Below are positions 3,611 through 64,000 of a DNA stretch of 64,000 nucleotides, piece after piece; within the stretch, counting starts at the first letter, position 1; each line of letters opens with the position of its first letter. The position numbers were made by a program, and so were the translations under genes. The DNA comes from Clostridia bacterium (lineage in GTDB: Bacteria > Bacillota > Clostridia > Christensenellales > CAG-138): the NCBI GenBank assembly GCA_017547885.1, contig JAFYOP010000001.1, forward strand, positions 1,500 to 65,499. Reading direction: 5' to 3'. A model generated the notes under the pieces. The model ran no database searches and was not told where the DNA came from. It saw only the letters and a program-made list of their open reading frames with translations.

Positions 3611-3645
3611 AAAGGGCTGTGGGAAACCACGGCCCTTTGATATTT
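3611..3645 (+). terminator. Intrinsic terminator after the FTR-like gene
   Basis: Stem GGGCTGTGG / CCACGGCCC with a GAAA loop, followed by TTTGATATTT. Confidence 0.7.
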
Positions 3646-3889
3646 ATCTAATCCCACCCACCACAGAACTAAAGTAATAGTGAATAGTGAAGGAGTATTT
3701 ATTATCTATACCCACCCGCCACCCTTTAAATGTATCTTCGCCTAATGGCGAAGACGGGGGAGGACGGATAAAGCTCCATTAACCGCGAATAACTCCATGG
3801 GGTGTAACCTATCCTGCCGATAGCACGTTTCGCTTCTCCCGCAGGGAGAAGCTTCCTTAAAGGGTGGAGGGTGGGTATAGATAATAAAT
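3641..3889. repeat. Family A quasi-palindromic element, copy A1 (extended variant)
   Basis: The order is a solo arm TATTTATCTAATCCCACCCACCACA, then a GTAATAGTGAATAGTGAAGGAGTATT module, then the full element 3697..3889. The element's arms are ATTTATTATCTATACCCACCCGCCACCCTTTAA and TTAAAGGGTGGAGGGTGGGTATAGATAATAAAT. Subterminal hairpins are TCTTCGCC-TAAT-GGCGAAGA and GCTTCTCCC-GCA-GGGAGAAGC. Confidence 0.85.
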
Positions 3890-4132: not shown

Positions 4133-4783
4133 TCACTTCCTCCTCACCCGCACCCAAAAGCCGCTGCCGTCCCGGGCACGGAGGAAGCGGGTGTAGCCGG
4201 GAGGGCCGCTGCGGCCCTCTGCGGGAAGGGCGTGAATGAGATAATCCACACCCTTGTGGCGGGACTCCCCCTCAAGATAGCAGCGGTCCGTGCCGGGATA
4301 TTCCACCCGCCGCCAGCGGGAAAAGGGAAAAGCCTGAGGGAAGGGATTCAGTACCGCGTCATCCTGAGGCGGCGGGGGAAGGGGCTGGGGCTGTTCTGCG
4401 GGGAAAAGCTCCGCCGCCTTTTGCAGTATTTCAAGGAGAGCGGCGGAATTGGGCCGCTGGGGCTGCTTGGGCTGAGCTTGCGGCGGCTGCTCAGGGTGCC
4501 GGGGAGCAGGAATAGGCTTTTGAGCCGAAAGGCCCATCAGCAACGCCGTCCGTGCCTTGCCAAGGGCAGCGGAGTGCCCCGCAAGGCAGCCCTGCATGGC
4601 TATCCTGTCTCCATCCGGCACAAAGGCGCCCACCACGTCATTAGGGGCGGATTCCCGCGGGTATACCTTGCCCTGCCTGTCAATAAGGTACAGCTCCTTA
4701 CAGGGAACGGACAGCTGTATTTCCTCCCCCAGCGTAAGAAATGCCCTGCCGCCCGGGCCTGAAAGGGTAATGAGTCTTTTCAT
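4133..4783 (-). CDS. Hypothetical protein with a Pro/Gln-rich central linker
   Basis: Track ORF 4133..4918. Start moved to ATG 4783, preceded by AAAAGGAGA. No family recognised with confidence. Confidence 0.5.
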   Translation of the reverse strand: MKRLITLSGPGGRAFLTLGEEIQLSVPCKELYLIDRQGKVYPRESAPNDVVGAFVPDGDRIAMQGCLAGHSAALGKARTALLMGLSAQKPIPAPRHPEQPPQAQPKQPQRPNSAALLEILQKAAELFPAEQPQPLPPPPQDDAVLNPFPQAFPFSRWRRVEYPGTDRCYLEGESRHKGVDYLIHALPAEGRSGPPGYTRFLRARDGSGFWVRVRRK

Positions 4784-4877
4784 GCCCTGTCTCCTTTTAT
4801 GTTTGTGTTGATATAAAACTATGATATAATTTTGCTGTATAGACTTTGACCATTGCGCCAAAGAAAGGAAGAACCCC

Positions 4878-5588
4878 ATGAAAAACAAAAAGACCCTTTC
4901 GGCCCTGCTTACCGCCATAAGCTGCGTGGCATGGCTGGTGATAATAATCGCCCTGATGTTTACTTTCCTTAGGGGGGAGCTGAAAAACGAGAGCCGCTAT
5001 CTGGCCTTTTATGAGGAATACCGCATAGAGGAGCGTACAGGCCTTACCCCCAAGGGCGCCACCGATGCCCTTATGGCGCTGGTGGATTATATGGAAGGGG
5101 ACAGAGACAGCATACAGCTTACTGTTGAAGAATACGGCGTACCTGTTGAGATGTACTCTGAGGATGAGATACACCACATGGTGGATGTGTATTATCTCTA
5201 TCAGGGCTTTGCAAAGTTTCAGCCCGCGGGCATCGCATGCGCCGTGATAATACTGCTCATCGGCTGGTACGCAAAGAAAAACGCACTGCCCAATATACCC
5301 TTGCGGAGCTTTTTCCGGGGGCTGGGGCTGTTTGTGCTTATAGGGGGCGGCCTTGCCCTGTGGGCGATGCTGGATTTCACCTCCTTCTGGACGGCATTCC
5401 ACCTTGCCTTCTTCAGCAACGACCTGTGGCTGATGGACCCCAGAGTATCCCGCATGATACGCATATGCCCGGAGCACCTCTTCAGCGGCATTGCGGGCCG
5501 CATGGCCGCAAAGACCGCCGCAATGCTGGGCGTGATATGCATTGCCCTCATTACTTACAGCAGACATACCCGCAAAAAGGAAGCGTGA
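4878..5588 (+). CDS. TIGR01906/DUF1461 family integral membrane protein (Lit-like)
   Basis: 236-aa ORF after GAAAGGAAG. N-terminal TM segment, a middle domain with the EDEIHHMVDV motif, and C-terminal TM segments, as in TIGR01906 proteins. Confidence 0.7.
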   Translation: MKNKKTLSALLTAISCVAWLVIIIALMFTFLRGELKNESRYLAFYEEYRIEERTGLTPKGATDALMALVDYMEGDRDSIQLTVEEYGVPVEMYSEDEIHHMVDVYYLYQGFAKFQPAGIACAVIILLIGWYAKKNALPNIPLRSFFRGLGLFVLIGGGLALWAMLDFTSFWTAFHLAFFSNDLWLMDPRVSRMIRICPEHLFSGIAGRMAAKTAAMLGVICIALITYSRHTRKKEA

Positions 5589-6664: not shown

Positions 6665-6672
6665 GGGGGAGT

Positions 6673-6730
6673 GTTCTTTTCTTTAAAAGAAAAGAACCAA
6701 AAGAAGCGTACTTTCCTTAAAGGAAAGTAC
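6673..6730 (-). repeat. Family D twin Py/Pu hairpin module, copy D1 (Py-Py-Pu sense on the minus strand)
   Basis: GTTCTTTTCTTTAAAAGAAAAGAAC-CAAAAGAAGC-GTACTTTCCTTAAAGGAAAGTAC, 8 nt after the tsaD stop. Same module as the reverse complement of 62243..62314. Confidence 0.9.
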
Positions 6731-6781
6731 CAAAGGATAAATAACATAATTAAAAAAGTTTGCACAGAAGTGCTGTCAATC

Positions 6782-10534: not shown

Positions 10535-10879
10535 GGGCGTTGCCCTTTCGCGAAAAACCATTTGGGTTTTCCGCGAGTATCCGCTGGGTTGGGGGCGGCC
10601 AAATGCTGCGCAAGTGGCCGAATACAATCCCTTTGGGGGATGCCGATTCCCTCTCGCGGCTGCGGCCGCTCCCGGGCGGGAATCGGGCAGCGGTATCCAT
10701 CCCTTGCGGGATGGTTCCGTTTTCGCCGCACATGTCGCCGAAAACGGATTGAAAGCTTTGGGCATGCTGCCGAATGCGGATTGAAAGCCTCGAAGGTCTA
10801 ATATCCTTCCGATAGCACGCCCTGTTTTTCCGCAAGGAAAAACATACCTTAAAAGGGTGGCGGGCGGGAATAGATAAAT
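10535..10879. repeat. Composite repeat A2: family B-like hairpin series fused to a family A right end
   Basis: The B-like part has TTCCCTCTCGCGG..CTCCCGGGCGGGAA, CCATCCC-TTGC-GGGATGG and CCGTTTTCGCCG-CACATGT-CGCCGAAAACGG. It ends with CCGATAGCACG, TGTTTTTCC-GCAA-GGAAAAACA and TTAAAAGGGTGGCGGGCGGGAATAGATAA. No left arm is present. Confidence 0.75.
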
Positions 10880-10964
10880 ATACCCAAACCTAACTTGCCT
10901 CAGTTGACAAAATTGCACCTGCGATTATGCGGGAGCAAAAATAAAGAACGGAAGTACACACCGT

Positions 10965-21892: not shown

Positions 21893-22034
21893 TGCAGGAT
21901 TTCCCTCTCGCCTTGCGGCTCCCGGGCGGGAAAGCCTGTAAAGAAAGAAAACCTTATGGTTTTCATCCGTTCTGACGCACATGTCGTCAGAGCCGGAATG
22001 AAAATCAAGGGGTGCGCCCCTTGATGATCCCGGA
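21893..22034. repeat. Family B structured intergenic repeat, copy B2
   Basis: Has TTTCCCTCTCGCC..CTCCCGGGCGGGAAA, then GAAAACC-TTAT-GGTTTTC, CATCCGTTCTGACG-CACATGT-CGTCAGAGCCGGAATG and ATCAAGGGG-TGCG-CCCCTTGAT, and closes with TCCCGGA. Confidence 0.75.
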
Positions 22035-22545: not shown

Positions 22546-22590
22546 GTGGGCCTCCTTTCTGCGGGTGCCTGTGGGGCAAGAGAAATGGCG

Positions 22591-22771
22591 TATTTATCTA
22601 TACCCACCCACCACCCTTTTAATGTGCTTTTTCCCTTACGGGAAAAAGGGCAGGGTTGTTCGCAAGCCCGTTCTGATATGCAATGATTTAGATGCGTGTC
22701 ATTGACAGCACCCTCGGCTTTTCCGCAGGAAAAGCTACATTAAAAGGGTGGCGGGCGGGATTAGATAATTA
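22591..22771. repeat. Family A quasi-palindromic element, copy A3
   Basis: Arms are TATTTATCTATACCCACCCACCACCCTTTTAATG and CATTAAAAGGGTGGCGGGCGGGATTAGATAATTA. Subterminal hairpins are CTTTTTCCC-TTAC-GGGAAAAAG and GCTTTTCC-GCA-GGAAAAGC. Confidence 0.9.
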
Positions 22772-22830
22772 TCCGTAAAACAACATCGATGACGTATACC
22801 ATGTACACGTCAGCGATTTATTTATGTGTG

Positions 22831-24568: not shown

Positions 24569-24595
24569 GATATGGTATGCTGTGTTTTTGTTTTA

Positions 24596-24632
24596 CGTTA
24601 TTCTTTGGTTCTTTTCTTTTAAAGAAAAGAAC
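24596..24632 (+). repeat. Family D module, single-hairpin variant D2
   Basis: ACGTTATTCTTTG-GTTCTTTTCTTTTAAAGAAAAGAAC, 6 nt beyond the stop of minus-strand gene 24639..25973. It equals D3 with the hairpin-b segment deleted. Confidence 0.85.
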
Positions 24633-24638
24633 GTATAA

Positions 24639-31716: not shown

Positions 31717-31820
31717 GGGAATACCTTACCCACACAGGCAACACCGGCCTTTGGACAGAGCATCCCTTTTTCCCGCAGGGAAAAAGTACATTGAAGGGCG
31801 GTGGGAGGGAATAGATAATA
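31717..31820. repeat. Family A element, truncated copy A4 (right half plus a degenerate left arm)
   Basis: GGACAGAGCATCC, then CTTTTTCCC-GCA-GGGAAAAAG, then TACATTGAAGGGCGGTGGGAGGGAATAGATAATAAG. The left side has only a TACCTTACCCACACAGG remnant. Confidence 0.7.
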
Positions 31821-31830
31821 AGCCGCAAAT

Positions 31831-34664: not shown

Positions 34665-34916
34665 AAATTTATCTATACTCTGCCCGTAAATGAAGCTGCG
34701 GGTAATAATGAATGGTGAGAGAGTATTGATTATCTATTCCCACCCACCACCCTTTTAAGGTATCTTCGCCTGCCGGCGAAGACGGGACAGGTATGATAAA
34801 CCTCCGGCCTTTGCTAATAACCCAAAGGATAATGTACCGCATTATCGATGGAATGCTCGGCTTTTCCGTAGGAAAAGCTACATTAAAAGGGTGGCGGGTG
34901 GGATTAGATAATAATT
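34665..34916. repeat. Family A quasi-palindromic element, copy A5 (extended variant)
   Basis: The order is a solo arm start AATTTATCTATAC, then a GGTAATAATGAATGGTGAGAGAGTATT module, then the element. Its arms are GATTATCTATTCCCACCCACCACCCTTTTAAGG and CATTAAAAGGGTGGCGGGTGGGATTAGATAATAAT. Hairpins are TCTTCGCC-TGCC-GGCGAAGA and GCTTTTCC-GTA-GGAAAAGC. Confidence 0.85.
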
Positions 34917-35805: not shown

Positions 35806-36750
35806 TCAATAAAACGTTGCAACTTCCTTTTCCGGCTTTTGTGCAGGCTCAACATCTATAACGTGGAGCACAGGGCCGCGGCCGCCGTAGATGCGGTTAA
35901 AGCGTACCTCTATGGAGGCGGTGACTATAACCCACTGGCGCTGGGTCAGGGTGTCTGCCTTGTCCCACTTGCACACAAGGCCGCTGTATTCGATATCGTC
36001 CACACAGCAGGTCATAACGTGACGTCCGGCAATGAAGGTATCTTCGGGCAGGCGGGCGTTGCGGGCAACTATGCCCTTAAAGCGAACGGTTTTGCCTGCG
36101 TACTTTTTCAGCTCCTCGGACATATCCCGATACCATATGGCGTAGTCGTTGTCGCCGATTTCGATAACCGGAGCATCAACGTCAAAGGGGAGGGGGTCCT
36201 CAATATCGTCGTATTCCACATGGCCGTCGGTGTATTCGTAGGCGATGTTGGCACGGCGGGATACACCGCGGATTATCTTGTGTATCTCCTCTTTGTTGAG
36301 GGTGTCGTCCGCACGGTTCAGCACAACCAGCTCCGCCGTCATCAGCTTGTCCACCATAAGGGAGCGCATGTTGGTGTTGTAGGGAATGAAGGTTTTGGCG
36401 TCCACAAACATGAACTCCTGATACACTGTCCATTCCTTGGGGAAAACACGGGCAAGGTCGCTGAGCAGCCACATGCCGTTGTACTCTATCAGCACGCGAT
36501 CCGCCTGATATTTCTTGACCAGCTTGGTAAGGTCTTCGGAGGTGACCTCTTCGATATCCTCTATGGTTTCGATGTAAACGTATTTGCTGGGGAACTTTGA
36601 AGGATCCAGCTCCTCAATGCCCTCCTCGCACATCAGCACAAGGGTGCGCTCCCCGTCATTAAAGCGCTTATCGCACAGGGTCTCCTGCATAAAGCGGGTC
36701 TTGCCGCCCTCCAGAAACCCCGTGAACATATATACAGGAATCTGTTTCAT
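35806..36750 (-). CDS. G3E-family GTPase-like N-terminal domain fused to a DUF1980/TIGR03943-like C-terminal domain
   Basis: 314-aa ORF. N-terminus VYMFTGFLEGGKT (P-loop-like). The C-terminal segment GRHVMTCCVDDIEYSGLVC resembles YcgQ/DUF1980. Confidence 0.65.
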   Translation of the reverse strand: MKQIPVYMFTGFLEGGKTRFMQETLCDKRFNDGERTLVLMCEEGIEELDPSKFPSKYVYIETIEDIEEVTSEDLTKLVKKYQADRVLIEYNGMWLLSDLARVFPKEWTVYQEFMFVDAKTFIPYNTNMRSLMVDKLMTAELVVLNRADDTLNKEEIHKIIRGVSRRANIAYEYTDGHVEYDDIEDPLPFDVDAPVIEIGDNDYAIWYRDMSEELKKYAGKTVRFKGIVARNARLPEDTFIAGRHVMTCCVDDIEYSGLVCKWDKADTLTQRQWVIVTASIEVRFNRIYGGRGPVLHVIDVEPAQKPEKEVATFY

Positions 36751-36753
36751 GTA

Positions 36754-37902
36754 CTATACTCCAAACAGCTCCATAAGGGCGGATTCATTCAGCTTTGCGC
36801 CGATTACGCACAGCCTGCCGGTAACGCCTGCGCTGCCTTCGCGAACGTTTATCTCGCCGGGTACAAAGTCAAAGTGTATCCAGGCATTTTCGCCCTTCAG
36901 TATGCCCTTTGCCCTGAGTACCGCGCCGTACTTTTCCTCGTCCTCAAGGGCGGCAAGGGCAGCGGCGATACCTTCCGCAGAGAAGGCCTTGGCAGTTTCA
37001 ACGCCCCAGCTGGTGAATACTTCGTCAGCGTGATGATGGTGATGATGTCCGCACTCGCACTCGTGGTCATGCTCGTGATGATGGCCGCATTCGCACTCAT
37101 GGTCATGCTCGTGATGATGGCCGCATTCGCACTCGTGGTCATGCTCGTGATGATGGCCGCATTCGCACTCATGGTCGTGTTCGTGATGGCCGCACTCGCA
37201 CTCGTGGTCATGCTCGTGATGATGTCCGCACTCGCACTCGTGCTCGTGATGGTGGTGGTGATGATGCTCGCTTTCTGCCTTCAGGTGTGCAAGCTCCTCA
37301 TCAAGGGTGTCGCGGCGCTCCATGGCGGTGAGTATCTGTGCGCCGGTCAGCTCATCCCAGGGGGTAGTGATGAGGGTGGCATCGGCGTTGTGCTGACGGA
37401 TAAGCTCAACGGTGGCGGTGAGCTTGTCCTCGGATATGCCTGCGGTGCGGGAGAGGACTATGGAATTGGCGTGCTCTATCTGGTCGTTGAAGAATTCACC
37501 AAAGTTCTTCATGTACATCCTGCACTTGTTGGCGTCAACGATGGCGGTAAAGCTGTTGAGCTGCAGCTCCTCTGCTCCCACGTCCTGTACGGCGCGGATA
37601 ACGTCGCTGAGCTTGCCTACGCCGGAGGGCTCTATCAGTATACGGTCGGGGGAGTACTGCTCCAGCACCTTCTTGAGGGCCTCGCCAAAATCGCCCACCA
37701 GGCTGCAGCAGATGCAGCCGGAGTTCATTTCGGTAACCTCAATTCCGGCTTCCTCAAGGAAACCGCCGTCAATGCCTATTTCACCGAATTCGTTTTCTAT
37801 AAGTACCAGCTTTTCCCCGCCAAATGCCTCGGGGATGAGCTTCTTGATGAGAGTAGTCTTGCCTGCGCCCAGGAAGCCGGAAAAAATATCTACCTTTGTC
37901 AT
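36754..37902 (-). CDS. CobW/COG0523 family GTP-dependent metallochaperone with a long His/Cys repeat insert
   Basis: Track ORF 36754..38055, start set at ATG 37902 (MTKVDIFSGFLGAGKTT); ATG 37914 is an alternative. Has the CICCS motif (CxCC), the ILIEPSGVG switch and a CobW C-terminal domain. The insert is (HDHECECGHHHE)n. Confidence 0.85.
   Translation of the reverse strand: MTKVDIFSGFLGAGKTTLIKKLIPEAFGGEKLVLIENEFGEIGIDGGFLEEAGIEVTEMNSGCICCSLVGDFGEALKKVLEQYSPDRILIEPSGVGKLSDVIRAVQDVGAEELQLNSFTAIVDANKCRMYMKNFGEFFNDQIEHANSIVLSRTAGISEDKLTATVELIRQHNADATLITTPWDELTGAQILTAMERRDTLDEELAHLKAESEHHHHHHHEHECECGHHHEHDHECECGHHEHDHECECGHHHEHDHECECGHHHEHDHECECGHHHEHDHECECGHHHHHHADEVFTSWGVETAKAFSAEGIAAALAALEDEEKYGAVLRAKGILKGENAWIHFDFVPGEINVREGSAGVTGRLCVIGAKLNESALMELFGV
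37030..37268 (-). repeat. Coding tandem repeat, 36-bp unit x about 5.5, inside the COG0523 gene
   Basis: Units GCCGCATTCGCACTC(A/G)TGGTCATGCTCGTGATGATG begin at 37048, 37084, 37120, 37156 (33 bp) and 37189. They encode HHHEHDHECECG repeats flanked by His runs. Confidence 0.9.
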
Positions 37903-38113
37903 GGTTTGATGCATCTCTTTTCGTTGTATTTTGAGAAGGAAGACTGCAAAAGGCCATCCCTCCACAACTGTATTATAGTCAGACAGAAGCGGATATACAA
38001 GGGCACACGGGCATTTTCTTGCTATGTTCACAGGTAAGGAGGAATTTCGCCACAAATTATGAACAAATGCGTATTATAGGTGAACTGAATAAAAAATATG
38101 GTATAATAGGCCT

Positions 38114-59564: not shown

Positions 59565-60053
59565 TTAGTTGAAGCGTGCCATGGTCTCGGCGTCTGCCTT
59601 AAGCACGGCGGCGCGGCCCTCTTCACGGGCCCTGTTGAGCTTGTCCGCAAGGACGGGATCTGTGATTGCAAGCATTTCTATTGCAAGGAGGGCGGCGTTC
59701 TTTGCGCCGTCTACAGCCACGGTGGCAACGGGTATGCCTGAGGGCATCATAACGGTGGAAAGCAGAGCGTCCATGCCGTCAAAATTGGCGGATCTGCAGG
59801 GAATGCCGATTACAGGCAGGGTGGTGTTTGCGGCGAGAGCGCCTGCAAGATGGGCGGCCATGCCTGCGGCAGCTATGAGCACGCCAAAGCCCCTTTCCCG
59901 GGCAGCGGCGGCAAATTCCCTTGCCTCATCGGGGCAACGATGTGCGGACAATACCCGCACCTCGGTTTCCACGCCGTATTCTTTCAGCACCGCAATGGCT
60001 TTTTCCACTACGGGAAGATCGCTGGTGCTTCCCATGATGACTCCAACTTTCAT
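59565..60053 (-). CDS. purE: 5-(carboxyamino)imidazole ribonucleotide mutase
   Basis: 162-aa ORF after AAGGAGG. Motifs [24 protein letters not shown] and IGIP. Confidence 0.95.
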
Positions 60054-60083: not shown

Positions 60084-60203
60084 CAAACAAAAGGGCAACC
60101 CGATTCACATACTCAAATGAGAATCAGCTTGCCCAGGCGGTCGGCTTATTGCGTACGGTTCCCTTGTGGTAAGCCACTTCCGCCAGTAGCCGTACGAGTA
60201 GTA
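60084..60203 (-). promoter_or_regulatory. ZTP (pfl motif) riboswitch with a terminator expression platform, upstream of purE
   Basis: The minus strand reads CGUACGG-CUACUGGCGGAAGUGGCUUACCACAAGGGAA-CCGUACG-CAAUAAG-CCGACCGCCUGGGCA. This contains the conserved ACUGGCGGA, GUGG/CCAC and CCGACCGCCUGGGCA pseudoknot blocks. The GGGCA overlaps the 5' arm of terminator GGGCAAGCUGAUUC..GAAUCGGGUUGCCC-UUUUGUUUG. Confidence 0.9.
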
Positions 60204-60378: not shown

Positions 60379-61704
60379 TTATACCTTGAAGTTTACAGAG
60401 GTGGAGCCCTGCTCTTCCTGAGCAAAGTCATAGTCCTTGCCGGGCAGGATGGCGTTGAGCATGATGCCTACGATGGAGGCAACAGCCAGACCGGACAGGG
60501 AGGCGATGCCGATGGAGATGGAGCCGGCGGCGGAGTTTGCAATACCAAGGGCCAGCACCATGATGAGGGCGGCGATGATAACATTGCGGGAGGAGGTGAA
60601 GTCCACCTTGTTTTCAACGATGTTGCGTACGCCAACGGCGGAGATCATGCCGTAAAGCACAAGGGATACGCCGCCGATGGTGGCGGTGGGCATTACGGAG
60701 ATGAGGGCCGCAAACTTGGGGCTGAAGGAGAATACGATGGCAAGAACCGCGGCAATGCGGATCACGCGGGGGTCATATACCTTGGACAGGGCCAGAACGC
60801 CGGTGTTTTCGCCATAGGTGGTGTTGGCGGGGGCGCCGAAGAGGGATGCAAGAGCGGTGGCAAGGCCGTCGCCCAGCAGGGTGCGGTGGAAACCGGGATC
60901 CTCCATGAAGTTCTTTTCGCAGGTGGAGCTTATGGCGCAGATGTCGCCGATATGCTCTACCATGGTGGCGATGGAGAGGGGAGCGATGGTCAGAACCGCG
61001 GTGAGCAGCAGAGAGGTGTCAACTTCGCCTGCAAACAGGCCGAATACGGTGTTTTCAAACTGGAAGGGAGCGCCGATCCATGCGGCTTCCTTAACGGCGG
61101 TGAAATCAACCAGACCGCATACGGCAGCAACTACGTAGGATACTACAAAGCCCATCAGTATGGGGATGATCTTTATCATGCCCTTGCCCCAGATGTTGCA
61201 TACGATAACTACGGCTATTGCCAGTATGGCTATCCACCAGTTGGCAGCGCAGTTATTGATGGCGGAGGAGGACAGGGTCAGGCCGATGCAGATGATGATG
61301 GGGCCGGTAACGATGGGAGGGAAGAAGCGCATTACCTTCTTCATGCCGAATACCTTGAAGCAGGCTGCAAGGATTACGTACATGAGGCCGGCGATCATAA
61401 CGCCAAAGCAGGCATAGGGCAGCAGGTGAGCCTCGCCATTGGGGGCGATGGCAGCATAGCCGCCGATAAAGGCGAAGGAAGAGCCCAGGAATGCGGGAAC
61501 CTTGCCCTTGGCCAGGAAGTGGAACAGCAGAGTGCCGAGGCCTGCAAAGAGCAGTGTGGCGGAAACGCTGAGGCCGGTGAGGGCGGGAACCAGTACCGTT
61601 GCGCCGAACATGGCGAACATGTGCTGGAAGCCCAGTACGAACATTCTGGACTTGCCCAGAGTACGGGCGTCGTAAATGGCGCCGTTTACGGAGTTGTTGG
61701 ACAT
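60379..61704 (-). CDS. uraA: Uracil permease (NCS2 / uracil-xanthine permease family)
   Basis: 441-aa ORF after CAGGAGG. Close block-wise match to E. coli UraA: QHMFAMFGATVLVP, GKVPAFLGSSFAF and NTTYGENTGVLA. Confidence 0.8.
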   Translation of the reverse strand: MSNNSVNGAIYDARTLGKSRMFVLGFQHMFAMFGATVLVPALTGLSVSATLLFAGLGTLLFHFLAKGKVPAFLGSSFAFIGGYAAIAPNGEAHLLPYACFGVMIAGLMYVILAACFKVFGMKKVMRFFPPIVTGPIIICIGLTLSSSAINNCAANWWIAILAIAVVIVCNIWGKGMIKIIPILMGFVVSYVVAAVCGLVDFTAVKEAAWIGAPFQFENTVFGLFAGEVDTSLLLTAVLTIAPLSIATMVEHIGDICAISSTCEKNFMEDPGFHRTLLGDGLATALASLFGAPANTTYGENTGVLALSKVYDPRVIRIAAVLAIVFSFSPKFAALISVMPTATIGGVSLVLYGMISAVGVRNIVENKVDFTSSRNVIIAALIMVLALGIANSAAGSISIGIASLSGLAVASIVGIMLNAILPGKDYDFAQEEQGSTSVNFKV

Positions 61705-61967
61705 TGGGTAACCTCCTGTGAATGAATAATGTATAATTTATCTCCCCGAGCATGCATCGGGATACGATGCAGTCCGACAAAATTACGGACAAATCTTCAT
61801 TATACTACCACGGCAAGGGGGGATTCGCAACAATAAATTGAAGCTTTTTTATGGCATCAGCCCCTTAATTTACGCATGAATGACAGTACAAAATCCGATG
61901 GAAAAAATGGAATGGGAAGGGAGGGCAAACCTGTTGAAATAATAGAAAAAGACGGGCGGCAAAGGAG

Positions 61968-62153
61968 TAATTATCTATCCCCACCCGTCACCCTTTTAAT
62001 GTATATTCGCCTTACGGAGAAGAAAAAGGAGTATAAATTATATGTAAACCTGAAAAGCATGCACTGACATTATCCGGTGTCAGCGTAAGCTTATCCTTTT
62101 TTCCCGTAAGGGAAAAAGTACATTGAAGGGTGGAGGGAGGGAATAGATAATTA
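61968..62153. repeat. Family A quasi-palindromic element, copy A6
   Basis: Arms are TAATTATCTATCCCCACCCGTCACCCTTTTAATG and CATTGAAGGGTGGAGGGAGGGAATAGATAATTA. The right subterminal hairpin is CTTTTTTCCC-GTAA-GGGAAAAAG. Confidence 0.85.
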
Positions 62154-62179
62154 AAAAGCTCACTTTTTGCCAAAACCAC

Positions 62180-62208
62180 AAATTCGGCCTCCCATCGAGG
62201 CCGAATTT
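62180..62208 (-). terminator. Intrinsic terminator of serS
   Basis: AAATTCGGCCTC-CCATC-GAGGCCGAATTT. On the minus strand it is followed by TTTGTGGTTTTGG. Confidence 0.75.
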
Positions 62209-62242
62209 GGATAGCATATGTATGGTTTTTAATAGGTTATTT

Positions 62243-62314
62243 TACGCTATTCTTTGGTACTTTCTTTTAAAGAAAGTACGCTTCTTTTGGTTCTTTTCTT
62301 TTAAAGAAAAGAAC
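62243..62314 (+). repeat. Family D twin Py/Pu hairpin module, copy D3 (Py-Py-Pu sense on the plus strand)
   Basis: TACGCTATTCTTTG-GTACTTTCTTTTAAAGAAAGTAC-GCTTCTTTTG-GTTCTTTTCTTTTAAAGAAAAGAAC, ending 8 nt from the serS stop codon. Confidence 0.9.
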
Positions 62315-62322
62315 ATACAAAA

Positions 62323-63591
62323 CTACTTAATGTACTCACAGCCCATATACTTCACCAGCGCATCCGGCACCTTAACGGAGCCGTCGGGCTGCTGATAGTT
62401 TTCAAGGATAGCGGCAACGGTGCGGCCCACAGCCACGCCGGAGCCGTTGAGGGTGTGAACCAGCTCGGGCTTTGCGCCCTTTTCGCGGCGGAAGCGTATC
62501 TGGGCGCGGCGTGCCTGGAAGTCCTCAAAGTTGGAGCAGGAGCTTATTTCAACGTAGCGGTTGTAGCTGGGCATCCATACCTCGATATCGTAGGTTTTGG
62601 CGCTGGAGAAGCCCAGATCGCCGGTGGACAGGGTAACCACACGATAGGGAAGGCCAAGGCCCTGCAGCACACGCTCTGCGTCGGCGGTGAGGGACTCAAG
62701 CTCTGCGTAGGAATCCTCGGGCTTTGCAAACTTTACCAGCTCTACCTTGTTGAACTGATGCTGGCGGATAAGGCCGCGGGTGTCACGTCCTGCGCTGCCT
62801 GCCTCGCTGCGGAAGCATGCGCTGTATGCGCAGTACTTGATGGGCAGCATATCGCCGTCAACTATTTCGCCGCGAAGCATGTTGGTTACGGGTACCTCTG
62901 CGGTGGGGATGAGGAAGTAATCGGTATTGGTCACCTTGAAAGCATCCTCCTCAAACTTGGGCAGCTGACCGGTGCCTGTCATGGAGGCGCGGTTTACCAT
63001 GTAGGGAGGCAGAATCTCGGTGTAGCCGTTTTCGCTGTGGGTATCCAGGAAATAGCTGATGATAGCACGCTCCAGCCTTGCGCCAAGGCCGCGGTATACG
63101 GTAAAGCGTGCGCCGGTTATTTTGCCTGCGGTGGCAAAGTCCAGTATGTTCAGGCCTTCGCCGATGTCCCAGTGTGCCTTGGGCTCGAAATCAAAGGATG
63201 GCACTTCGCCCCAGCGGCGCATTTCAACGTTGTCCTGATCGTCTGCGCCTTCGGGTACGGATTCGTGGGGGATGTTGGGAATGGACAGCAGCATGCCGTT
63301 CATTTCCTCGTCCATGGCGGCAATCTGATCGTCCAGCTCCTTTATCTGAGCGCCGACCTTTTTCATTTCCGCCATCAGCTCGGTGGTGTCCTGACCTGCC
63401 TTCTTCATGGCAGGGACCTTGGCGGATTCTTCGTTGCGGCGGGCCTTGAGCTGCTCTGCCTCCTGCATGAGCTCACGGCGCTTTGCATCCATTTGGATAA
63501 GGCCGGATACGTCCGCGCCCTTGCTGCGGCGCTTTCTCATGGCCTCGGTCAGTGCTTCGGGGTTCTGGCGTATGCGTTTGATGTCCAGCAT
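62323..63591 (-). CDS. serS: Serine--tRNA ligase
   Basis: Track ORF 62323..63693, start set at ATG 63591 after AGGAGGAAAACAATA ([12 protein letters not shown]). Class II motifs [21 protein letters not shown] and GSGVAVGRT. Confidence 0.95.
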
Positions 63592-63641
63592 TATTGTTTT
63601 CCTCCTGATAGAGTGTGAAGTTCGATTTTTTGTTTTATTCT

Positions 63642-63713
63642 CTTCTTTTTCTCTTTCTTTTCGGACGCGAAAAGAAATGAGAAAAAGAAGCAAAAAGAGA
63701 AAGAAAAGCGAAA
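63642..63713 (-). repeat. Family C Py-Py-Pu triplex-type module, copy C3 (sense on the minus strand)
   Basis: The reverse complement reads TTCGCTTTTCTTTCTCTTTTTGCTTCTTTTTCTCATTTCTTTTCGCGTCCGAAAAGAAAGAGAAAAAGAAG. It lies between the stop of 63745.. and the serS start. Confidence 0.9.
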
Positions 63714-63744
63714 GGTTGAAAATGGATGATGTATTAAGGGAACT

Positions 63745-64000
63745 TTAGCTGATCTTTGAAAGCTCTGCGCCCATATCCGCAAAGAAGGCGGTAAGGGCTG
63801 CCTCGTCAGACCAGTCAACTTCATTATAGAGAAGGAACAGCCCAGATGCGGAAACCGCATTATCCTCGCCCGGGGTGAAGGTAATGGCGGCAGAAGGGCA
63901 GTTGTCGAATACGTAGAGATATATTACGCTTTCTGTCAGCGATTCGTCAACAAAGGTCTTTCCTGCGGCGCAGACGGCGGAGGCGGCCAAATTCTGCGCC
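63745..64000 (-). CDS. Hypothetical protein, C-terminal part (gene continues beyond the window end)
   Basis: The frame of track ORF 63745..63990 stays open to the window edge. No family recognised. Confidence 0.4.
   Translation of the reverse strand, partial: AQNLAASAVCAAGKTFVDESLTESVIYLYVFDNCPSAAITFTPGEDNAVSASGLFLLYNEVDWSDEAALTAFFADMGAELSKIS

Follow-up and report, generated by a model that had tools for sequence, protein, structure and literature searches.

We present here an analysis of C3, an element on the minus strand upstream of the aminoacyl-tRNA synthetase gene serS in a 64,000-nt stretch of DNA (hereafter the window) from an uncultured member of the Clostridia (GenBank assembly GCA_017547885.1, contig JAFYOP010000001.1, positions 1,500 to 65,499). 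C3 belongs to a family of intergenic repeats that are dispersed, turn over fast, and occur in a narrow clade of uncultured gut Clostridia. Its parts are arranged as a one-strand pyrimidine-motif triple helix would need them, with T.A-T and C+.G-C triads and the third strand parallel to the purine strand. On balance, and with modest confidence, we regard the repeat as selected for a double fold-back of its pyrimidine-sense strand, acting as a REP-type structural bumper beside open reading frames (ORFs) and not as a serS-specific switch.

Read on the minus strand, C3 (63642-63713) consists of 5'-TTTCG, tract A (CTTTTCTTTCTCTTTTT), a single G, tract B (CTTC-TTTTTCTC(A)TTTCTTTTC), the loop GCGTCC, and tract C (GAAAAGAAAGAGAAAAA-GAAG-3'), with the coordinates listed in Table 1. 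Tracts B and C are Watson-Crick complementary except for one extra A in B. Tracts A and C are parallel complements base by base in 17 of 17 triads (T opposite A, C opposite G), and A is thus the mirror image of B. The purine tract is 76% A, and its G residues are isolated. This three-tract anatomy and the orientation of C3 had been put forward in an original prediction made from the window alone, and the minus-strand sequence bears them out. The 83-nt core of C3 has a predicted RNA folding energy of -26.5 kcal/mol, which 0 of 200 shuffles equaled, and the predicted secondary structure is a 22-bp hairpin with tract A unpaired; the folding tools used consider Watson-Crick pairs only, and third-strand pairing lies outside their model. 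The whole 153-nt intergenic RNA before serS folds at -34.3 kcal/mol (z = -4.5), and its minimum free energy (MFE) fold contains part of a pairing between the pyrimidine tracts and the purine-rich Shine-Dalgarno (SD) region of serS.

Two further copies in the window, C1 and C2, are 93 to 97% identical to C3 and to each other over about 75 nt, with their pyrimidine sense on the strand opposite to that of C3. Outside the window, a 21-nt probe across the loop gave nine further exact matches in three metagenome-assembled genomes (MAGs) named "Clostridia bacterium" among 185,579 species genomes, and a tract A probe gave more copies in camel and human gut metagenomes, amid about 100 unrelated chance matches. 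The element recurs in independent NCBI, ENA, JGI, and Logan assemblies. Related MAGs and gut metagenomes gave about 30 long copies, and 29 were aligned.

All 29 aligned copies have a tract A that is an exact parallel complement of their tract C. The features that vary among them are the first base (G or A), position 10 (G or A), and the length of the distal A-run (5 or 4); whenever C changes, A and B change with it. The 4-bp clamp, which lies outside the stretch covered by tract A, is complementary in every copy, although its sequence differs (CTTC/GAAG, GTTC/GAAC, CTGC/GCAG, CTAC/GTAG, and TTAC/GTAA). The G between tract A and the clamp is invariant in all long, short-form, and D6/D8 modules. 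Tract B is perfect in none of the 29 copies; 26 carry one extra nucleotide of variable identity in mid-B. Loop sequences are also variable, with 12 variants among the same copies.

Shorter modules obey the same three-tract rule, namely, GAAAAGAAA with CTTTTCTTT, AAAAGGAAA with TTTTCCTTT, AAAGAAAA with TTTCTTTT, GAAGAAAA with CTTCTTTT, and AAGAAAA with TTCTTTT, and all of these carry the linker G and a 4-bp clamp. Taken together, ten distinct (A, C) types of 7 to 17 triads are all parallel-perfect (10/10), and none is antiparallel-perfect (0/10). A reading of tract A as a direct repeat of B was rejected, since no type has a perfect antiparallel A-C match.

The module finder seeds on exact 6-mers, and perfection within a detected span is therefore partly built in; the informative points are the concordance at variable positions, the variety of types, and the absence of modules in controls. 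Five three-tract modules were detected in the window, two of them with 17 triads, while the exact-seed scan misses C1 because of a mismatch in its B tract. In 100 dinucleotide shuffles of the window, the mean number of modules was 0.01 and no module exceeded 7 triads; 200 shuffles of the intergenic DNA alone gave zero. About 550 kb of unrelated metagenome contigs chosen for tract A likewise contained zero three-tract modules, and at 19 sites in viral DNA that match the purine tract by chance, the other two tracts were lacking. A test of G.U-versus-A.C asymmetry for the RNA-selected strand was uninformative, the only B-C substitution being A opposite G.

The family supplies comparative evidence on three-strand pairing: its subtypes, even at orthologous sites in close strains, change the three tracts together, and the candidate Hoogsteen tract is more exact than the Watson-Crick tract. 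This is hard to explain unless three-strand folding itself has been selected. A mirror repeat has no templated copying origin, and the three-way match is therefore probably kept because three-strand pairing is selected, or through exchange among copies under such selection.

A few individual modules depart from the standard form. At L017 5136-5250 (L numbers denote loci outside the window), a 53-nt G+C-rich insert containing two small hairpins takes the place of most of tract B, with A and C intact. The module at L099 5930-5990 has lost half of its B tract, and its A and C still match. The copy upstream of serS at L155 3120-3205 has no bulge, and its flanks (CTTTATC ... GAGATAAA) are predicted to pair, which would put tract A in an internal loop bounded by two stems; this ENE-like layout was not seen in the other copies. 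Short tandem modules of the same A-G-clamp-B-loop-C design, with 7 to 8 triads, directly follow the stop codons of several genes, argS and serS among them. Their number varies among strains (one or two after serS), and G-to-A changes are mirrored in their three tracts (AAGAAAG versus AAGGAAAG).

The copies follow a positional rule. In most of those checked, the hairpin (tract C) end lies near an ORF boundary, with the third tract on the side facing away from the ORF concerned. At about 17 independent loci, the hairpin end is 7 to 23 nt from a convergent stop codon, and the mRNA of the gene carries the purine sense, as for C1 and C2. At about 10 independent loci, it is 24 to 52 nt upstream of an SD sequence and start codon, and the mRNA carries the pyrimidine sense, as for C3. 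L003, L017, and L026 had no boundary in the ORF scan, and at L007 the stop codon is 73 nt away. C3 had been predicted to differ from C1 and C2 in its sense relative to the neighboring genes; the opposite orientation is real, but C3 is not an exception within the family, about 10 copies of which share its start-codon context. On the A side is a weakly conserved extension of about 35 to 45 nt (..GCTTATACA..TTTAAAC-TTTCG). Beyond this extension, many stop-proximal copies are followed by a bidirectional terminator and then TTTTTGGAYAGCAC, which places these copies in the 3' untranslated region (UTR), past the stop codon and ahead of the terminator. The short modules are placed in the same way, two of them sitting 12 nt after the serS stop codon and ahead of the serS terminator.

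GC skew is positive in 15 of the 16 4-kb bins of the window. Since C1 and C2 are opposed to C3 under a skew of near-constant sign, orientation tracks the neighboring ORF and not replication, and a replication-strand bias was rejected. Polar placement against translation signals, regardless of replication direction, suggests a constraint or function at the level of mRNA, and the strict spacing from start and stop codons points the same way.

At serS, C3 begins 31 nt beyond the stop codon (63745-63747) of the upstream ORF and ends 50 nt ahead of the serS ATG, matching the spacings of about 30 and 50 nt that had been predicted. Its hairpin ends about 35 nt ahead of the serS SD sequence, which is not occluded. 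No intrinsic terminator was found between the upstream ORF and serS. No U-run follows the C3 hairpin in either sense, and the stem is A/U-rich; C3 was rejected as an intrinsic terminator on these two grounds. A serS promoter between C3 and the ATG was also rejected, the sole match (TTCACA-18-AATAAT) overlapping the start codon. Because neither a terminator nor a usable promoter lies between C3 and the ATG, any RNA that reads into serS carries C3, and does so in the pyrimidine sense.

Rfam searches at C3 gave no T-box or other family at the gathering threshold, and at E <= 1 only sub-threshold matches to hairpins of microRNA precursors. The T-box model (RF00230) works in this clade, as a T-box was detected elsewhere in a related MAG. 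C3 was rejected as a T-box leader: it has no RF00230 match, the leader is only 153 nt long, and the ancestral state is a spacer of 38 to 50 nt after argS. Of the original prediction, the absence of a terminator and a T-box and the presence of the pyrimidine-sense element in serS-entering transcripts thus hold on the signal scan and the Rfam search, there being no credible promoter that fits within the 50 nt between C3 and the ATG.

Comparison with related serS loci shows insertion polymorphism at this site. The element is absent at L012 and L013 (SerS 93% identical to that of the window; argS-serS spacer of 38 nt), at L016 (88%; spacer of 92 nt), and at L014, in a complete 2.44-Mb genome (84%; spacer of 50 nt). 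The window, whose SerS served as the query, contains a lipoprotein gene plus an element of type 1 with bulge A and loop GCGTCC. L011 (97%) has the lipoprotein gene and an element of type 1 with bulge G, and L015 (97%) has the gene and an element of type 3 with loop GATAC. L155 (96%) has no lipoprotein gene and instead has a 369-nt spacer of other repeats plus an element of type 3 with no bulge and loop TTTA. The lipoprotein gene therefore lies between argS and serS in three lineages and is absent in L012 to L014, L016, and L155. In lineages with SerS at least 96% identical, the element is 42 to 52 nt upstream of the ATG. The last 30 or so nt before the serS SD sequence are identical in loci with SerS at least 93% identical and different in L014 and L016. 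The ancestral argS-serS arrangement, with a spacer of only 38 to 50 nt, implies cotranscription of the two genes. At a second orthologous site, downstream of a sigma-70 family gene, L011, L015, and L155 carry three different types, each internally matched.

These comparisons indicate that the element reached serS recently and only in the clade with SerS proteins at least 96% identical, and that it was later replaced or converted between subtypes. It turns over faster than its flanks, with the three-way match always kept. A special tie of the element to serS, as originally supposed, is not borne out: the repeat is dispersed, it is absent upstream of serS genes whose products are 84 to 93% identical, and its subtypes differ in closer strains. 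For annotation, this means that a structured sequence ahead of an aminoacyl-tRNA synthetase gene need not be a leader. Contigs encoding SerS with 97 to 99% identity are mostly 1.4 to 2.5 kb long, and one starts inside the element loop (L001 1-30). This reads as an expected effect of multicopy repeats, which flank serS on both sides and break short-read assembly; such repeats fragment metagenome assemblies around essential genes.

We propose that tracts B and C form a hairpin of about 21 bp whose major groove would be entered by the 5' tract A as a parallel pyrimidine-motif third strand (T/U.A-T/U and C+.G-C), with A joined to B through one G and the 4-bp clamp. C3 would be carried in the pyrimidine sense in the 5' UTR of the transcript that reads into serS. 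There, a very stable hairpin, possibly capped by the third strand, may shape mRNA processing and decay as REP-type elements do. A composition of 76% A.U with isolated G suits the pyrimidine motif and poorly suits the purine motif, which by the chemistry of triplexes points to an RNA-compatible structure; the A/U-rich tracts with isolated G would make the fold chemically plausible in RNA near neutral pH. RNA has been reported not to form the purine-motif triplex (PMC4666352). C3 most likely does not serve as a switch responsive to serine or specific to serS; it may affect the translation or mRNA stability of serS.

A bolder version, that the pyrimidine-sense transcript folds into a self-contained RNA triple helix of 16 to 17 U.A-U and C+.G-C triads, its 5' tail reentering the deep groove through a 1-nt link and the 4-bp clamp, we consider doubtful. 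We know of no natural RNA triplex with as many as 16 to 17 triads. If the bolder version is true, the element would surpass every natural RNA triplex in length and be the first bacterial mRNA element built on a triple helix. A triplex ahead of an SD sequence, as at serS, would then shield the 5' end from 5'-to-3' exonucleolytic decay, and the third strand, which is always distal to the ORF, fits what such end capping would require. Alternatively, the structure could be a pH- or Mg-sensitive switch, since free tract A can pair with the purine-rich SD region.

Several points weigh against selection for a double fold-back acting beside ORFs. About 60% of loci put the purine sense in the mRNA of the adjacent gene, where a pyrimidine-motif RNA triplex is impossible, so that an RNA triplex cannot be the sole selected function. 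Four C+.G-C triads require protonation of cytosine, and the bulge in mid-B would break a continuous triplex. In TMECO, the closest known family, the triplex forms on a single strand in vitro and went undetected in duplex DNA or in vivo, and TMECO has neither promoter nor terminator activity (PMC4666352). No transposase was found near any copy examined. The proposal is built on sequence and predicted folding.

The most serious rival locates the function entirely in DNA and makes transcription of C3 incidental; we think it unlikely, though well short of negligible. A non-B structure (H-DNA from the A/B mirror repeat, a B/C cruciform, or a single-strand intrastrand triplex) would stall replication or repair and promote rearrangement, with transient single-strand folding during these processes as a possible cause of local instability, or the element would be an attC-like site of structure-specific recombination through which neighboring genes move. 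The conserved extrahelical base in one arm and the position after stop codons resemble features of attC sites. Assemblies break inside the element, and each strand conforms to a triplex class, one to class IV and the other to class II. Element loci are hypervariable in close strains: subtypes are swapped, the modules after serS number one or two, and a lipoprotein gene between flanking modules is found in some strains and missing in others, in agreement with the findings of Holder et al. on TMECO loci (PMC4666352). However, the tight, polar placement at ORF ends, independent of replication direction, has no obvious cause at the DNA level. An A-rich purine-motif DNA triplex is expected to be weak, and the TMECO triplex has not been seen in duplex DNA or in vivo. 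Neither an integrase nor a transposase was found among the neighboring genes. Identity with an integron attC site was rejected on this ground and on the absence, on inspection, of the R'/R'' cores (RYYYAAC/GTTRRRY), although an extrahelical base is present.

The original prediction had instead read C3 as a cis-regulatory leader of serS, in which a pH- or Mg-dependent pyrimidine-motif RNA triplex tunes translation or stability. The element is cotranscribed with serS in the pyrimidine sense with no promoter or terminator between, the site is occupied with the three-way match intact in four lineages, and about 10 other copies lie at a similar distance upstream of an SD sequence and start codon. 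The pyrimidine tracts are, in addition, complementary to the purine-rich SD region, and part of that alternative pairing appears in the MFE fold. Still, the element is not specific to serS, relatives with 84 to 93% identical SerS do without it in spacers of 38 to 92 nt, its subtypes are interchangeable, and it occurs in the opposite sense after unrelated genes. With a hairpin that ends about 35 nt before the SD sequence and no link to sensing of serine or tRNA-Ser, such a leader is improbable.

We hold it very improbable that the element is a portable expression signal, whether as an outward promoter in the 5' extension for the gene at the hairpin end or as an unconventional terminator or insulator beside the bidirectional terminators. 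A bidirectional terminator, TTTTTGGAYAGCAC, and an AT-rich box come before many of the copies, and a promoter-like TAGATA-17-TATTAT is found upstream of C2. Yet promoter-like matches of at least 9/12 occur in 2 of 29 copies versus 2.2 expected in shuffles, with none at C3; the hairpin is not followed by a U-run in either sense; and TMECO has neither activity. The promoter in the 5' extension (TTGGAYAGCAC, about 17 nt, AT-rich box), plausible by eye and flagged at C2, was rejected for want of any excess over shuffles. The TGGAYAGCAC motif is marginally enriched in the window (14 matches versus 7.4 expected). Finally, a chance product or assembly artefact has almost no chance of being the explanation: low sequence complexity speaks for it, as do chance recurrences of the purine tract by itself in lysine/glutamate-rich coding DNA, but the control scans, with essentially no modules in shuffles and unrelated contigs, and the A-C concordance in aligned copies rule this reading out, and the same elements appear in independent assemblies.

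Among known systems, the family is by its sequence logic closest to the bacterial intrastrand triplex motifs, including BoxC/TMECO, of which it would be an A/T-rich, longer variant compatible with an RNA triplex. Bacterial repeats that form triplexes on a single strand entered the literature in 2000 and 2015 (Hoyne et al. 2000; Holder et al. 2015, PMC4666352). The best-studied such family is G/C-rich, with little informative variation and no demonstrated function (PMC4666352). The ITxF definition of such motifs asks for three consecutive blocks on one strand (Hoogsteen, pyrimidine, purine), the third-strand block parallel to the purine block and forming T.A-T and C.G-C triads, with a stem of 6 to 15 nt, no more than one mismatch, and loops of 1 to 6 nt (Holder et al. 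2015, PMC4666352). The block order and triads of our family conform to class IV in the pyrimidine sense and to class II on the complement, and the modules are over-represented relative to scrambled sequence, as in the ITxF definition. Its loops are 1 nt (or 5 nt if the clamp opens) and 4 to 6 nt, its stem of 16 to 17 nt is beyond the 15-nt ceiling of the ITxF search, and its B tract is bulged.

Like intrastrand triplex motifs, the family has three consecutive blocks and is multicopy, strictly intergenic, and present in both orientations; it sometimes forms inverted pairs of differing subtypes (here, L004 2484-2541 and 2605-2665); and its stems are more conserved than its loops, its loci are hypervariable, and it has no known mobile-element gene. 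It differs from TMECO in composition (76% A.T triads versus G/C-rich) and length (16 to 17 triads versus 9) and also has a single-G first loop with a covarying 4-bp clamp, a near-constant extra base in B, and many covarying subtypes. Its placement at ORF boundaries is tight and polar, whereas TMECO has no preferred distance, and its hosts are uncultured Clostridia, whereas the TMECO/BoxC kind is found in Proteobacteria or Cyanobacteria. Identity with BoxC/TMECO was rejected, as there is no resemblance to the consensus 5'-CCCTCNCCC N3-6 GGGNGAGGG N3 GGGNGAGGG-3'.

The REP and BIME elements of Enterobacteria are short intergenic or intercistronic repeats, often within about 15 nt of stop codons, whose hairpins are barriers to mRNA decay; they are imperfect palindromes headed by a conserved tetranucleotide, with a cognate RAYT in the genome. 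The present family resembles them as a set of intergenic structured repeats of strain-variable number and orientation that form mosaics with other modules, and both a palindrome and an extragenic mosaic are present. In contrast to REP/BIME, it has no GTAG-type head and no sequence similarity, and its third tract is without counterpart. No RAYT (Y1 transposase) was found among the Pfam-annotated neighbors of L011 and L014 to L016 or the ORFs beside copies.

Major-groove RNA triplexes are known in telomerase, in the SAM-II and preQ1-II pseudoknots, and in the MALAT1 and PAN ENE with their A-rich tracts; in the telomerase and pseudoknot triplexes, a deep groove of 6 to 7 bp is spanned by one or two nucleotides. 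At the level of sequence compatibility, the family would share with these a 5' U-rich Hoogsteen strand followed by a U-rich Watson-Crick strand and then an A-rich strand, with matching polarity. It would likewise combine U.A-U with isolated C+.G-C triples, and its very short groove-crossing link and few uncovered base pairs recall loop 1 of H-type pseudoknots. The interruption of its stack midway may be compared with the MALAT1 reset. In the ENE, the U-rich strands are the two sides of an internal loop with stems on either side, and in H-type pseudoknots they are loop 1 and stem 2. The present fold would instead be a simple hairpin with a 5' tail, with no stem between A and B but only the G and the clamp, and it belongs to a bacterial mRNA UTR and not to a eukaryotic or viral noncoding RNA. 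With the T-box leaders of Firmicutes, the only shared feature is the position upstream of an aminoacyl-tRNA synthetase gene.

As to mobility, no transposase or integrase was found beside any copy among the neighboring genes and ORFs examined. Matches to IMG/VR viral contigs included one true copy (on a 4.6-kb contig), the other 26 being chance coding sequence, and an association of the family with phages was rejected on the strength of that single copy. An IS200/IS605-type or other transposon beside the short-form copies in the related MAG JAUNBP01 was also rejected, as no long ORF is shared among the 1.1- to 1.3-kb stretches on the A side, in which confident genes are lacking. Homology among these short-form loci spans only about 130 to 200 nt, in the form of a mosaic repeat in which the short-form element is embedded. 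Near elements in JAUNBP01, Rfam gave only an SRP RNA, a T-box leader, and a Gut-1 RNA (68.7 bits), the last at about 1 kb from a short-form element.

Table 1. Positions of C3, its relatives, and other features (window coordinates unless a locus is named)
Feature	Position	Strand	Remarks
C3 tract A	63692..63708	-	CTTTTCTTTCTCTTTTT; candidate third (Hoogsteen) strand; parallel complement of tract C
C3 linker, single G	63691	-	Joins tract A to clamp
C3 tract B	63669..63690	-	CTTC clamp + TTTTTCTC(A)TTTCTTTTC; Watson-Crick partner of tract C; 1-nt bulge A at 63678
C3 hairpin loop GCGTCC	63663..63668	-	Predicted fold: C-G and G-C closing pairs around a CGUC tetraloop
C3 tract C	63642..63662	-	Purine strand GAAAAGAAAGAGAAAAA + GAAG clamp partner
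C3 5' flank	63709..63744	-	Conserved TTTCG (63709-63713) + weakly conserved extension of about 30 nt (..CTTAATACAT..TTTcAAC), reaching the upstream stop codon
Copy C1	4048..4122	+	Hairpin end 10 nt from stop of convergent ORF 4133-4918
Copy C2	35720..35795	+	Hairpin end 11 nt from stop of convergent cobW-like gene 35806-36750
serS (422 aa)	62323..63591	-	ATG at 63589-63591
serS SD sequence	63600-63606	-	
Native serS leader remnant including SD	63592..63641	-	Last ~30 nt match the bare argS-serS spacer of relatives
Predicted lipoprotein gene, 3' end	63745..64000	-	Protein of ~209 aa, no Pfam match; between argS and serS in this lineage only
Two tandem short three-tract modules	62237..62320	+	TTCTTT-G-GTAC.. 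and TTCTTTT-G-GTTC..; 12 nt after serS stop; purine sense in serS mRNA
serS terminator	62179-62209	-	Follows the two short modules
Short tandem modules	6669-6739, 24588-24638, 62237-62320; L011 4600-4650, 6797-6850; L015 9100-9170, 11283-11313		
G-run family, G-rich on +	3829-3888, 10822-10881, 22713-22772, 31763-31822, 34856-34915, 62095-62154	+	
G-run family, inverted copies	3634-3675, 3692-3733, 22584-22625, 34720-34761, 61961-62002		
CGCACATGTCGCCGAAAACGGATTGAAA repeat family	1844-1934, 21922-22012, 10727-10786; L155 3060-3095		
ZMP/ZTP riboswitch (RF01750, 53 bits)	60124-60200	-	Upstream of purE-like 59565-60053, downstream of permease-like 60379-61704
Rfam matches in related MAG JAUNBP01 (Gut-1, T-box, SRP RNA)	L003 1894-1965; L007 3498-3734; L009 3216-3482	-	

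The window contains a second dispersed family, composed of a short hairpin, ACATTAAAA, GGGTGGNGGGNGGG, in which the G-runs are conserved and the single-base spacers variable in a G-quadruplex-like pattern, and ATAGATAAT. At several copies, the G-run sits in the 17- to 18-nt spacer of a promoter-like TTAAAA/TTGAAG...GATAAT match. The C-rich strand of this family contains a 7-triad mini-module (CCCTTTT / TTTTCCC / GGGAAAA), with a spacer of 7 to 8 nt where other modules have the single G, and the copies are often inverted pairs. Another repeat family (..CGCACATGTCGCCGAAAACGGATTGAAA..) is common to loci of the window and is present too in the 369-nt argS-serS spacer of L155. Seven tandem repeats of 36 nt (one of 33 nt) at 37007-37296 lie within a cobW-like gene (36754-38055) and encode a His/Glu/Cys-rich run (HHHEHDHECECG..).

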